A DNA stretch of 64,000 bases from a virus (Duplodnaviria > Caudoviricetes), in IMG/VR virus record IMGVR_UViG_3300042914_002678. One strand, given 5' to 3'. Under the pieces are notes generated by a model. The model did not search any database. It was not told where the DNA came from and was given only the letters and a program-made list of their open reading frames with translations. Position numbers and translations under genes: made by a program. Shown in pieces: positions 6,918 to 54,208 of the stretch. Position 1 is the first letter of the stretch; each line of letters starts with the position of its first letter.

Positions 6918-6953
6918 CTAAATAACATTAATAGACCAATATTAGGTATTTAG
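6918..6953. promoter_or_regulatory. Pair of oppositely oriented T4-type late promoters
   Basis: CTAAATA on + at 6918-6924 (toward 6956) and TATTTAG at 6947-6953 (CTAAATA on -, toward gp4). Confidence 0.6.
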
Positions 6954-46529: not shown

Positions 46530-46765
46530 GTTCCACTTACATATACTTTGTTATCTTTTTTTGTATTGCTTACTTAATTGTTACCGATCAATCCATAGCG
46601 AGGGCATTTTATATGCTGACTCAACTTGCTCAAGTACAATATGAAAAAACAAAGTGGTGGATAATTCACTCACCAGATAATATCATAGTTAAATGGTTGA
46701 TTTACAGAAAATCTATGAAGATGGCGAAAGAACTGATGGGAGAATTGGAAAAGAAGAATAAATAA
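46526..46765 (+). CDS. Small membrane protein
   Basis: N-terminal hydrophobic helix; ATGA coupling. Confidence 0.55.
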   Translation: MSSTYIYFVIFFCIAYLIVTDQSIARAFYMLTQLAQVQYEKTKWWIIHSPDNIIVKWLIYRKSMKMAKELMGELEKKNK

Positions 46766-46865
46766 TAATGCTTTTATGTGTGGTAACTAAAAGCAAAAGG
46801 GGGGATCCCCCCCCTTTTTTACTGCGTAATTCGTATAAATAGTATTACCACACATAAAAAGCAGT
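46758..46865 (+). ncRNA. Structured regulatory cassette 1 upstream of a GIY-YIG gene (candidate sRNA plus leader)
   Basis: ATAAATA, hairpin GCTTTTA/TAAAAGC, G6/C-rich terminator with T6, TATAAATA, then a leader complementary to 46770-46786. Confidence 0.6.
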
Positions 46866-47480
46866 ATGAATACTCTACGCATATACACTTATCGTATATC
46901 CTTTGAGGAAGTGCCGTATTATTATTATGGGGTCCATAAAGAAAAAAATTTTAACGAAGAGTATTATGGGTCTCCTGTAACCAACAGATGGTGCTGGGAA
47001 ACTTATACTCCAAAGAAACAGATATTAGAATATTTTGTTGATTGGGAAGAAGCGCAAAGAGTAGAAGCAAGAATAATAAAAGAGTTTTATAATAAAGATA
47101 AGTGGTGTCTAAATGAAAATTGTGCTGGGTATATATCCTTACAGAAAAGAAGTGAGGCAGGAAAAGTTGGAGGTAAAAGGGGGTCGGCAAAATGTAAAGA
47201 AATGGGAATCGGAATATTTGGGATGTCCTCAGAAAAAAGAACTGAAACTGCTAAAAAATCTGTTAAACAGGCAAAGAAAAATAAAACTGGTATATTTGCT
47301 CTAACAAAAGAGCAATTAGTTGAGAATGGAAAAAAAGGTGGTATAATATCTTCTAAAAAGTTAAACTCTCAAAAGTGGATGTGTTTGGAAACTGGTATGG
47401 TATCTACCATAGGTCCTCTTACAAGGTATCAAAAAGTGAGGGGTATTGATACTTCTAAAAAAGTAAAAATAAATAACTAA
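46866..47480 (+). CDS. GIY-YIG (Seg-like) putative homing endonuclease
   Basis: IYTY..ISF...YYYYGVH, YYGSP, catalytic-type EARII, CLNEN; basic repeated C-terminus. Confidence 0.7.
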   Translation: MNTLRIYTYRISFEEVPYYYYGVHKEKNFNEEYYGSPVTNRWCWETYTPKKQILEYFVDWEEAQRVEARIIKEFYNKDKWCLNENCAGYISLQKRSEAGKVGGKRGSAKCKEMGIGIFGMSSEKRTETAKKSVKQAKKNKTGIFALTKEQLVENGKKGGIISSKKLNSQKWMCLETGMVSTIGPLTRYQKVRGIDTSKKVKINN

Positions 47481-48297: not shown

Positions 48298-48774
48298 ATG
48301 GATTACTTAAGAATTGAACCTGGAAAATCTGTTTTAGTTTTAAATTCCAGTTATGAACCACTTAACATTACAAGTTGGAAGAGAGCAATAGTTTTACTTC
48401 TCAAAGAAAAAGCACAAATTCTTTCAACTCAAGTAATCAGATTATTAGATTATGTGAAAGTTCCACTTTCAAAAATTATGTCACATAGACCATCAAAAAC
48501 GATGATCTATAAGCGTGATAGTAATTCTTGTCAGTATTGTGGATCTACCAGAAATCTAACCATAGATCATATCATTCCAAAATGTCGAGGTGGTGAAGAT
48601 ACTTGGGAAAATCTTGTAGTTGCATGTAGTTCATGTAATACAAAAAAAGGTAATACATTATTGGAGCAAACTGGAATGAAATTGAGAAAAAAACCCAGAC
48701 CTCCATTAAACAAAATGCAGTTTACTCTGCACAGTTCAAATATCCAAGAATGGAAATTATACACTTATTCGTAA
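48298..48774 (+). CDS. HNH endonuclease
   Basis: VLVLNSSYEPL N-terminus; RDSNSCQYCG, TIDHIIPK..GG..TWENLV.ACSSCN..KG. Confidence 0.9.
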   Translation: MDYLRIEPGKSVLVLNSSYEPLNITSWKRAIVLLLKEKAQILSTQVIRLLDYVKVPLSKIMSHRPSKTMIYKRDSNSCQYCGSTRNLTIDHIIPKCRGGEDTWENLVVACSSCNTKKGNTLLEQTGMKLRKKPRPPLNKMQFTLHSSNIQEWKLYTYS

Positions 48775-52582: not shown

Positions 52583-52863
52583 CTGACCACGAAGAACTCC
52601 CAGTATCAAACGAATTCGTCACATTTGTAAGAATTCAACTTGACCACGAACAAAGACAACAACTCCGTCGTTATCTAAATCTTCATTATCTTGGTGATGT
52701 GAATTGTAATGAGTATGATGAGAACTTCAAACTTGTTCCCAAATACCCAGAGAAAGAAACACAAGAGTTCAAAGATGCTATGTGGAGAGCAGATATGTCA
52801 GTAGATTATCAAGTCAAAGTGGTTTATGATGTGAATGGTAAATGTAAAATGGAGTTGCTATGA
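52579..52863 (+). CDS. Hypothetical protein
   Basis: ATGA coupling. Confidence 0.55.
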   Translation: MTDHEELPVSNEFVTFVRIQLDHEQRQQLRRYLNLHYLGDVNCNEYDENFKLVPKYPEKETQEFKDAMWRADMSVDYQVKVVYDVNGKCKMELL

Positions 52864-53087
52864 AACCTTATCTTTTGATTGTTGGGGACAACTACTACCC
52901 TTCTGCTTATACTGGTGATTGGGTTGCTTGTTATTCTACCGAAGAAGAAGCAAAAGAAAAATGGGAAGAACTATCTAAAGATAAGTATAGTAATGATTGG
53001 TATGAAATCGTTGATTTGAGGGAATGGATGGAAGATACTACATTTGATACTTTTGGACCTACTGGACTTATTGGAGACCCACAATAG
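52860..53087 (+). CDS. Hypothetical protein
   Basis: ATGA coupling, GGAG SD. Confidence 0.55.
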   Translation: MKPYLLIVGDNYYPSAYTGDWVACYSTEEEAKEKWEELSKDKYSNDWYEIVDLREWMEDTTFDTFGPTGLIGDPQ

Positions 53088-53091
53088 TAGA

Positions 53092-53197
53092 ATAAATAGA
53101 AGTGTCTGTTTGGACGGCAATCTCTACAGACAAAAGATTAGGTGCTTTCGGGCACCTTTTCTATTATAAATAATAATGCCGTCCAAATAGAATAGAA
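53092..53197 (+). ncRNA. Structured regulatory cassette 2 upstream of a GIY-YIG gene (candidate sRNA plus leader)
   Basis: ATAAATA, hairpin GTCTGT/ACAGAC, terminator AGGTGC/GCACCT plus T-tract, TATAAATA, then a leader complementary to 53106-53119. Confidence 0.6.
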
Positions 53198-53863
53198 ATG
53201 ACTAAAAATAGTCCTAGAATTTACACATATAAGGTTACCTTTGAAGAAGTTCCTTATTACTATTATGGTAGTAAAAAAGAAAGGTATTTTGATGAAGAGT
53301 ATTGGGGTTCTCCCGTAGCAAACAAATGGTGTTGGGGACTTTATACTCCAAAGAAACAGATATTGGAATATTTTGAGTTTAGTGATGAAGGATATATCAA
53401 AGCACAAGAAGTTGAAGGGAGATTAATTAACCCAGTATATAATACCGATAAATGGTGCTTAAATGAAAGTTGCTTGGGAGTTTTTTCTTTAGAGCAAAAA
53501 AGTAAAGCAGGAAAAAAAGCATATGAACTTAAATTAGGGGTTCATTCAAGAAGTAAAGACCAAATGAGTAAAGATGGTAAAAAAGGTGGAAACAGCAATA
53601 GAGAAAATAAAACTGGAATTTGTGGAAGAAGTTTGGAAGAAATGATTGAACACGGCAGAATAACTGGTTATAAAAAGAAAGAATTAAATATCGGTGTTTG
53701 TGGTTTATCAAAAGAACAGAGAATTGAAAATTCTAAAATAACTAATTCTCAAAGATGGAAATGTTGTATAAGTGGTTATGTATCTACTGCTTCTGGTGTA
53801 GTTCAGCATCAAAAAGGAAAAGGAATAGATACATCAAAAAGTAATAGACGCAGAATAGCATAG
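53198..53863 (+). CDS. GIY-YIG (Seg-like) putative homing endonuclease, paralog of 46866-47480
   Basis: RIYTYKVTFEEVPYYYYGSKKE, YWGSP, EGRLI, CLNES; three C-terminal repeats. Confidence 0.7.
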   Translation: MTKNSPRIYTYKVTFEEVPYYYYGSKKERYFDEEYWGSPVANKWCWGLYTPKKQILEYFEFSDEGYIKAQEVEGRLINPVYNTDKWCLNESCLGVFSLEQKSKAGKKAYELKLGVHSRSKDQMSKDGKKGGNSNRENKTGICGRSLEEMIEHGRITGYKKKELNIGVCGLSKEQRIENSKITNSQRWKCCISGYVSTASGVVQHQKGKGIDTSKSNRRRIA

Positions 53864-53920
53864 GACACTTCTCAAACTGGAACAAGGGCACTTGAAAACG
53901 GGTGCCCTTTGTCGTATAAT
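53863..53920 (+). promoter_or_regulatory. Early-promoter cassette copy 3
   Basis: GGACACTTCTCAAACTGGAAC, stem AAGGGCAC/GTGCCCTT enclosing TTGAAA, 17 nt to TATAAT. Confidence 0.8.
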
Positions 53921-53941
53921 GACTTCATAAGAAACAAACCG

Positions 53942-54208
53942 ATGAAACCACTTAAACTCTTTCAATACGATAAAAAAGTTTGGGATGATGGTGATGCCGA
54001 CTACACTTGGCAGTTCGGTATCATCAACAACAAAACATTATTCTGGGTTCATTATGAAAATCCCAGTCGTTTAGTTTTTAGTGATGGTGGATTACACATC
54101 CTATTCTCATTCTTTACTAATTCTTTATTTGGAGTAGATTTTCAACTTGGTAAGGTTGGTTTGAGTTTCAATTTTTTCACAGAATACTTTGATGGGTGGG
54201 AAGAATGA
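53942..54208 (+). CDS. Hypothetical protein
   Basis: First ATG after the promoter (MKPLKLFQ). Confidence 0.55.
   Translation: MKPLKLFQYDKKVWDDGDADYTWQFGIINNKTLFWVHYENPSRLVFSDGGLHILFSFFTNSLFGVDFQLGKVGLSFNFFTEYFDGWEE

Follow-up and report, generated by a model that had tools for sequence, protein, structure and literature searches.

A covarying RNA control module with two predicted late promoters accompanies mobile endonuclease genes of lake cyanomyoviruses

Homing endonucleases are selfish genes that are tolerated when nearly silent, and their control outside the T-even phages is known in outline only. The closest described systems are the phage T4 genes I-TevI, I-TevII, I-TevIII and segB and the mobE gene of phage Aeh1, in which a helix with a late promoter sequesters the translation initiation region and only late transcripts are translated (PMC2988022, citing Gott 1988 and Gibb & Edgell 2007/2009). 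For 'fractured gene' loci of cyanophage-like type in ocean metagenomes, Dassa et al. (2009) reported that 15 of the 16 5' UTRs of free-standing endonuclease genes contained hairpins, ten of them with TATAAATA, noted that the motifs were complementary, and read the hairpins as sequestration of the ribosome-binding site (PMC2677866). T4-type phages furthermore carry PeSLs, early-promoter stem-loop units implicated in recombination (PMC2839356, PMC4122927). In cyanophage S-PM2, the antisense RNA CfrI of about 225 nt spans an endonuclease gene and psbA (Millard et al. 2010, as summarised in PMC2984593).

Here we analysed a 64 kb stretch of viral DNA (IMG/VR record IMGVR_UViG_3300042914_002678; hereafter the window), which belongs to a T4-like freshwater (lake) cyanomyovirus with the Synechococcus phages S-SRM01 and B3/B23 as nearest isolates, and which carries two nuclease cassettes, each with a control module. 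Boxes of the type [AC]TAAATA lie 23–38 nt 5' of late-gene ATGs in the window and have the same motif as the first promoter, P1, of the cassettes. Such boxes were found at positions 6919, 7796, 27806, 29446, 31710, 32039, 38868, 43851 and 46166, before structural and other genes, and likely constitute the native late promoter set of the phage. They agree with the published cyanomyovirus late consensus, NATAAATA (PMC2984593). As the late box of T4 occupies positions -13 to -6 (PMC2988020), transcription was taken to start at the sixth base 3' of a box, and the predicted starts are therefore G53104 for P1 and G53178 for the second promoter, P2, of cassette 2. The exact TATAAATA motif occurs three times in the 64 kb, two of the occurrences being the P2 boxes of the cassettes. 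The third (position 1295) is located within the coding sequence of an ORF (972–1649) with a PD-(D/E)XK nuclease domain (Pfam, E 2.2e-07). Another ORF, 48298–48774, encodes an HNH endonuclease (Pfam HNH, E 2e-16) 0.8 kb 3' of nuclease 1; it is without a control module and begins directly after the stop of the preceding gene.

Every element that a preliminary description of this DNA had listed for cassette 2 was found where that description had placed it (Table 1). The predicted P1 start coincides with the first base of hairpin 1, and the predicted P2 start with the second base of the leader arm. In the predicted fold, the loop of hairpin 1 presents the part of the anti-leader that matches the beginning of the P2 mRNA. 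Leader nucleotides 53177–53190 pair with 53106–53119, with one G.U pair, and RNAduplex predicts 15 bp between 53105–53119 and 53177–53191 at -26.4 kcal/mol. The terminator T1 thus sits within the loop of a long-range helix, which in cassette 2 spans the leader from its predicted 5' end to about -7 and leaves the AUG uncovered. The read-through RNA folds into this long helix (z = -7.0), the short RNA from P1 to T1 into two hairpins (z = -5.3), whereas the leader initiated at P2 is open and unstructured (z about 0). The module of cassette 1 (46757–46868) agrees with that of cassette 2 in order and length, and its arm sequences are unrelated, as had been proposed.

Table 1. Positions of the control modules, nuclease genes and cassette boundaries in the window
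Feature	Position	Strand	Remarks
Cassette 2: P1, late-promoter box ATAAATA	53092–53098	+	cyanomyovirus type NATAAATA; predicted start G53104
Cassette 2: hairpin 1	53104–53131	+	arms 53104–53109 and 53126–53131; begins at predicted P1 +1; fold
Cassette 2: 5' arm (anti-leader)	53105–53119	+	duplex with leader arm, covariation
Cassette 2: intrinsic terminator T1	53140–53161	+	stem 53140–53157, then T run to 53161; terminator scan
Cassette 2: P2, T4-consensus late promoter TATAAATA	53165–53172	+	between the arms; predicted start G53178
Cassette 2: leader arm (5' end of P2 mRNA)	53177–53191	+	complementary to 5' arm; ends 6 nt 5' of ATG
Nuclease gene 2, start codon ATG	53198	+	
Nuclease gene 2, 221 aa	53198–53863	+	divergent GIY-YIG-fold N-terminal domain, then helical repeats
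Cassette 2: 3' end, G+C stem-loop overlapping TTGAAA-17-TATAAT	53878–53920	+	
Cassette 2: inserted mobile cassette	53084–53954	+	about 870 bp; ends accurate to a few bases; cassette-free alleles
Cassette 1: control module	46757–46868	+	covariance-model match 70 bits; folds
Cassette 1: P1	46758–46764	+	
Cassette 1: hairpin 1	46770–46794	+	
Cassette 1: 5' arm	46770–46786	+	duplex with leader arm, -24.0 kcal/mol
Cassette 1: T1	46795–46820	+	
Cassette 1: P2	46834–46841	+	
Cassette 1: leader arm	46845–46862	+	
Cassette 1: ATG	46866	+	
Nuclease gene 1, 204 aa	46866–47480	+	paralogue of gene 2; phrog_314 homing endonuclease, E 6.6e-10
ATAAATA box	47469–47475	+	within 3' end of nuclease gene 1, 30 nt before ATG of next gene

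The two nucleases share 46% identity. Sequence searches with nuclease 2 gave no Pfam match and no PDB sequence match, and a Foldseek search with it returned nothing under E 1. In its AlphaFold model (pLDDT 79), residues 3–92 align with the catalytic domain of I-TevI (Z 7.2, rmsd 2.6, 77 aligned residues); the next structural matches were PD-T4-3 (Z 6.5), the GIY-YIG domain of UvrC (4.8) and T4 EndoII (4.6), these Z values being moderate. Residues Y9, Y22-G24, E73 and N89 are invariant among the homologues and sit close to what we take to be the positions of the catalytic residues of I-TevI. Since the fold resembles that of I-TevI first and those of other GIY-YIG nucleases thereafter, the label 'GIY-YIG endonuclease' given to this protein in the preliminary description is reasonable by predicted fold, without a sequence match. 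From the fold and the polymorphism of its insertion site, nuclease 2 may reasonably be regarded as a GIY-YIG homing endonuclease with putative cleavage activity.

The upstream regions of homologous nucleases, the collection of which had been proposed as a check, were obtained from 80 IMG/VR loci as well as from S-SRM01 and B23, and represent 67 distinct sequences. Far from being mostly absent, the two-promoter, two-hairpin layout was present throughout, with P1, 5' arm, T1, P2, complementary leader and ATG following one another in 67/67. In the alignment of these cassettes, invariant columns are confined to the ATG, a single G and the TAAATA boxes of both promoters, the P1 box being invariant in 67/67 just as that of P2. 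Cognate arm-leader duplexes have energies from -20.7 to -29.6 kcal/mol, compared with a mean of -11.6 ± 3.9 for non-cognate ones (RNAduplex). In a MAFFT alignment, 90.1% of the cells of the long helix and terminator are paired (34–49% in slid controls) and 264 cells are compensated, against 83 in shuffled alignments, a number reached by 0 of 500 shuffles. A second alignment, of 80 modules fitted to a covariance model (R1) and hence biased towards structure, gave 95.1% paired cells (38–50% in slid controls) and 454 compensated cells versus 130 after shuffling, with changes on both sides at 21 of 21 pairs; the T1 stem also covaries, with 98.7% of its cells paired in this model-fitted alignment. 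At least five T residues are present within the 12 nt before P2 in 63/67 cassettes. Hairpin 1 is paired in 82.5% of cells (24–50% in slid controls) and begins no more than 3 nt from the predicted P1 +1 in all 67, and the leader arm starts at the fifth nucleotide after the P2 box in 57. The long helix is bounded by both predicted start sites, and pairing that extends 5' of either start is seen in a minority of cassettes only and without covariation.

Throughout the duplexes, 74 G.U or U.G pairs were counted and 0 A.C mismatches, so the selected form is the plus-strand RNA and not a DNA palindrome. Selection on the arm-leader pairing as plus-strand RNA is therefore strongly supported, and the earlier claim that the structure is conserved under selection is upheld at the RNA level. 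The arms do form an inverted repeat flanking a promoter, and I-TevI binds an operator over its own late promoter (PMC2988022); one might accordingly see in them a protein-binding site, a cruciform or a recombination site in the DNA rather than an RNA. However, the arm sequences are almost wholly different between cassettes while pairing is retained, one and the same module serves unrelated nuclease families, and the asymmetry of G.U over A.C speaks for strand-specific selection on RNA. This asymmetry excludes a DNA-level palindrome, and we consider a DNA-level role in place of an RNA one hardly credible. A conserved micro-ORF between P1 and P2 was likewise ruled out, because the distances between the two promoters vary by non-multiples of three. 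An Rfam search with the module identified no family, the top matches being far under the threshold. In the upstream regions of seven loci (L011, L014, L037, L041, L058, L070 and L072), the P2 box is preceded, 3' of T1, by one or two additional incomplete copies of itself; these are of the TATAAAC type and form tandem repeats of about 10–11 nt.

In searches with R1, S-SRM01 was found to have six modules and B23 three, while complete IMG/VR genomes had as many as three each. All 14 matches in S-SRM01, B23 and three IMG/VR genomes precede an endonuclease-type ORF. These ORFs belong to the nuclease family of the window and to canonical NUMOD3/GIY-YIG types, with one further ORF having a weak endonuclease VII match and one being HNH-like. 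The module is thus a general control unit of mobile homing endonucleases, not confined to the nuclease family of the window. No module was detected by R1 in S-PM2, P-SSM2 and S-B05, and in Syn9 and T4 the model gave only weak non-endonuclease matches between late structural genes; R1 was built from one clade and more distant versions may escape it. In a BLAST search of the module against isolated phages, S-SRM01 was the sole match. On four contigs, a second copy of the module was seen 1.3–1.9 kb 3' of the first (L053, 3117–3222; L028, 2799–2898; L052, 3353–3449; L021, 3344–3431), which suggests tandem endonuclease cassettes.

Comparison with cassette-free alleles, another check proposed at the outset, defined the insertion at site 2. 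In 8/8 related IMG/VR contigs, the upstream gene (52860–53083) is joined directly to the downstream gene through an overlapping GTGA, these empty alleles are without a TAAATA box (8/8), and a metatranscriptome contig carries an identical empty junction. The segment of about 53084–53954, with P1 inside it, is therefore an insertion of about 870 bp. Read from 5' to 3', it ends the upstream gene with a new stop codon, continues with P1, the short-RNA unit, P2 and the nuclease gene, and closes with a stem-loop carrying an early-type promoter and with a replacement start for the downstream gene, whose ATG now lies at 53942, just 3' of the stem-loop and promoter. The promoter, TTGAAA-17-TATAAT (11/12 match at 53892–53920), is predicted and could restore early transcription of the downstream gene that is interrupted by T1.

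At site 1, 44 cassette-free loci and a few occupied ones were found. The empty alleles have a resident AAATAAATAA late box, which overlaps the upstream stop codon and lies 17–25 nt before the next gene, and in the window the position of this resident box is that of the cassette 1 P1. The box at 47469–47475 is probably a late promoter replacing the one cut off by the insertion of cassette 1. In the window, cassette 1 sits between two ATAAATA boxes (46758–46764 and 47469–47475), while the empty alleles (loci L106–L177) have one. Insertion of the cassette at late-promoter boxes, or recombination through them, is possible at this site. Since P1 of site 1 coincides with a resident late promoter, the presence of P1 could in part reflect the mode of cassette insertion. 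The cassette-free alleles of both sites bear out the earlier proposal of a family of mobile nuclease units.

These observations bear on whether control is purely in cis, as in T4 I-TevI and Aeh1 mobE, with P1 either inactive or giving a functionless short product, and kept because of stop codons that it supplies to the interrupted upstream gene, microhomology for insertion at late promoters, or occlusion of P2 by polymerases terminating at T1. Such a mechanism is established in relatives (PMC2988022) and was proposed for cyanophage-like endonuclease genes too (PMC2677866); cassette 1 is located exactly at a resident late promoter with a second box at its 3' end, and the boxes of site 1 fit the promoter-repeat recombination described for PeSL elements (PMC2839356, PMC4122927). 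However, site 2 has no resident box, and the P1 box is as invariant as that of P2 in 67 cassettes and across several nuclease families, with a fixed distance to hairpin 1. Moreover, hairpin 1, a competitor of the long helix, is itself conserved. As cis control alone leaves both the invariant P1 and hairpin 1 unexplained, we find it unlikely to be the whole account.

The control module of a mobile cassette in which silencing in cis is bypassed by P2, complemented by an RNA transcribed from P1 to T1, is in our opinion the probable explanation of the locus as a whole. The 5' arm (53105–53119) would pair with the first ~15 nt of the nuclease leader, that is nearly the whole 5' UTR to about -7, and this pairing should block ribosome entry. 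Transcripts arriving from upstream would mostly end at T1, and those reading through T1 would fold into the long-range helix and be silent; the leader would be free only in transcripts started at P2, from which the 5' arm is missing. Transcription from P1 to T1 should meanwhile yield a late RNA of ~58 nt with the anti-leader in its loop, and this RNA may dampen nuclease synthesis by binding the 5' end of the P2 mRNA in trans.

For the last step, the action of this RNA in trans, we see the chances as about evenly balanced. P1, hairpin 1 and T1 have the sequence features needed for a separate late transcription unit, and a discrete RNA of ~58 nt is predicted from the invariant P1, the terminator in the loop and the hairpin at the P1 start. 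In the predicted RNA, the bases matching nucleotides 1–8 of the mRNA are 73% unpaired, compared with 18% for the remainder, and this seed is at least 60% unpaired in 62/67 cassettes; if the RNA is made, pairing with the P2 mRNA would be hard to avoid. A strong T1 would leave few transcripts in need of silencing in cis, and there is no obvious timing logic in a late small RNA that represses the late mRNA of its own cassette. Because across cassettes the helix stops 6–16 nt short of the ATG, with no more than a weak Shine-Dalgarno-like GAG inside it, we infer the repression of translation by pairing, as we do the activity of both promoters and the shares of cis and trans action. Related cassettes are represented in RNA libraries from lakes, where metatranscriptome contigs pass T1 and continue into the ORF; as assembled contigs they permit no reading of amounts and may include DNA carry-over. 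One RNA contig begins 2 nt after a predicted P1 start and another reaches far upstream, the ends of contigs not being the ends of transcripts.

A stronger version of the same idea holds that P1, hairpin 1 and T1 encode a dedicated trans-acting small RNA, that each nuclease has its own orthogonal key, and that repression in trans is the main function, with pairing in cis incidental. It agrees with P1 being invariant and borne by the cassette, with a hairpin 1 that begins at the predicted +1 and exposes the seed in its loop (62/67 cassettes), and with complementarity that sets in where the P2 mRNA is predicted to begin (57/67). The diversity of the arm cores (0.35–0.42), moreover, is about that of 4-fold degenerate sites in the neighbouring ORF (0.43), while conservation is far higher in the unpaired middle of the module (0.12). 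Orthogonality is found for the two cassettes of the window, whose cross-duplexes reach -5.8 and -8.2 kcal/mol against -24 and -26.4 for the cognate ones, and most cassettes of the same genome do not cross-pair. Against this, two cassettes in one complete IMG/VR genome (L092 and L095) have identical leaders and cross-pair fully at -24 kcal/mol, and those of S-SRM01 show intermediate cross-pairing (-16 to -18.5 kcal/mol). Strict orthogonality is thereby excluded: a separate key for each nuclease, as the preliminary description would have it, holds for the pair in the window and for most pairs within a genome but not as a rule. Nor is overall diversifying selection on the arms apparent, their diversity being about equal to, and not above, the synonymous one; an excess of arm over synonymous differences is confined to a few close pairs (n=5 and n=20). 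The arms are therefore free to drift under compensation, and enforced orthogonality is unsupported. Furthermore, neither seed had additional targets in the window beyond chance, and the RNA contigs over such modules pass through T1. Taken with these objections, a dedicated small RNA with trans repression as its main function appears somewhat doubtful. In L092 and L095, the N-termini of the nucleases have diverged while the control modules are nearly identical, which suggests exchange of modules or gene conversion within the genome.

What the analysis provides is a covariation-backed RNA structure of a portable control module together with a base-by-base insertion unit, the module accompanying several endonuclease families in a clade of abundant lake cyanophages. 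If the P1–T1 small RNA is real, it would be a rare example of a trans-acting late phage RNA regulating the enzyme of a mobile element itself, and the cassettes would offer a natural set of short leader/anti-leader pairs, many without cross-pairing. If it is not, the module would represent a well-documented elaboration of the T4 I-TevI/mobE mechanism, with an invariant P1 in need of explanation.

What the module shares with CfrI is a non-coding RNA, here a predicted one, that is associated with a homing endonuclease gene, the phage being a T4-like cyanophage in either case; CfrI, however, is a true antisense transcript, and R1 finds no module of the window type in its phage, S-PM2. Like PeSLs, the cassettes have composite terminator/promoter units flanking mobile genes: a stem-loop with TTGAAA-17-TATAAT closes cassette 2, and site 1 has boxes at both ends of the insertion. 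The late promoter and the leader-pairing helix, in contrast, belong to the module of the window and are not described for PeSLs. The likeness to the T4 and Aeh1 genes is the closest. In both, transcripts from farther upstream contain a segment that pairs with the initiation region of the endonuclease, TATAAATA as a late promoter (here predicted from sequence) lies inside the helix between the arms, late transcripts would lack the 5' arm, and the kind of gene and the phage superfamily are the same. The helix of the window differs in being long-range, its loop of about 57 nt holding a complete intrinsic terminator, and in ending at least 6 nt before the ATG; in addition, the 5' arm is immediately preceded by a second, invariant late promoter and also forms a conserved hairpin of its own. 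The loci of Dassa et al. resemble the present ones in that hairpins precede more than one endonuclease family, and are set apart by description, in that an internal terminator, an upstream promoter, a short RNA and covariation statistics are unmentioned in the cited part of that paper.

The module can therefore not be called an undescribed system, as the preliminary description had suggested, because its core logic is that of the established control of T4 I-TevI/segB and Aeh1 mobE (PMC2988022), and similar hairpins were reported for cyanophage-like genes in 2009 (PMC2677866). Not described before are the invariant P1, the terminator in the loop and the 5' hairpin that starts at the predicted P1 start. 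In IS10/Tn10, a stem-loop RNA, RNA-OUT, which comes from the opposite strand of the same DNA, complements with its loop the 5' end of the transposase mRNA (RNA-IN) and blocks its translation. Provided that the P1–T1 RNA acts in trans, it would resemble RNA-OUT in setting a loop against the extreme 5' end of the mRNA of the enzyme; unlike RNA-OUT, it derives from an inverted repeat located upstream on the same strand, it leaves the start codon uncovered, and it is so far predicted from sequence. We thus suggest, tentatively and with somewhat more doubt than confidence, that the cassettes carry a late-promoter-driven, same-strand RNA of ~58 nt, an RNA-OUT-like brake that travels with several endonuclease families.
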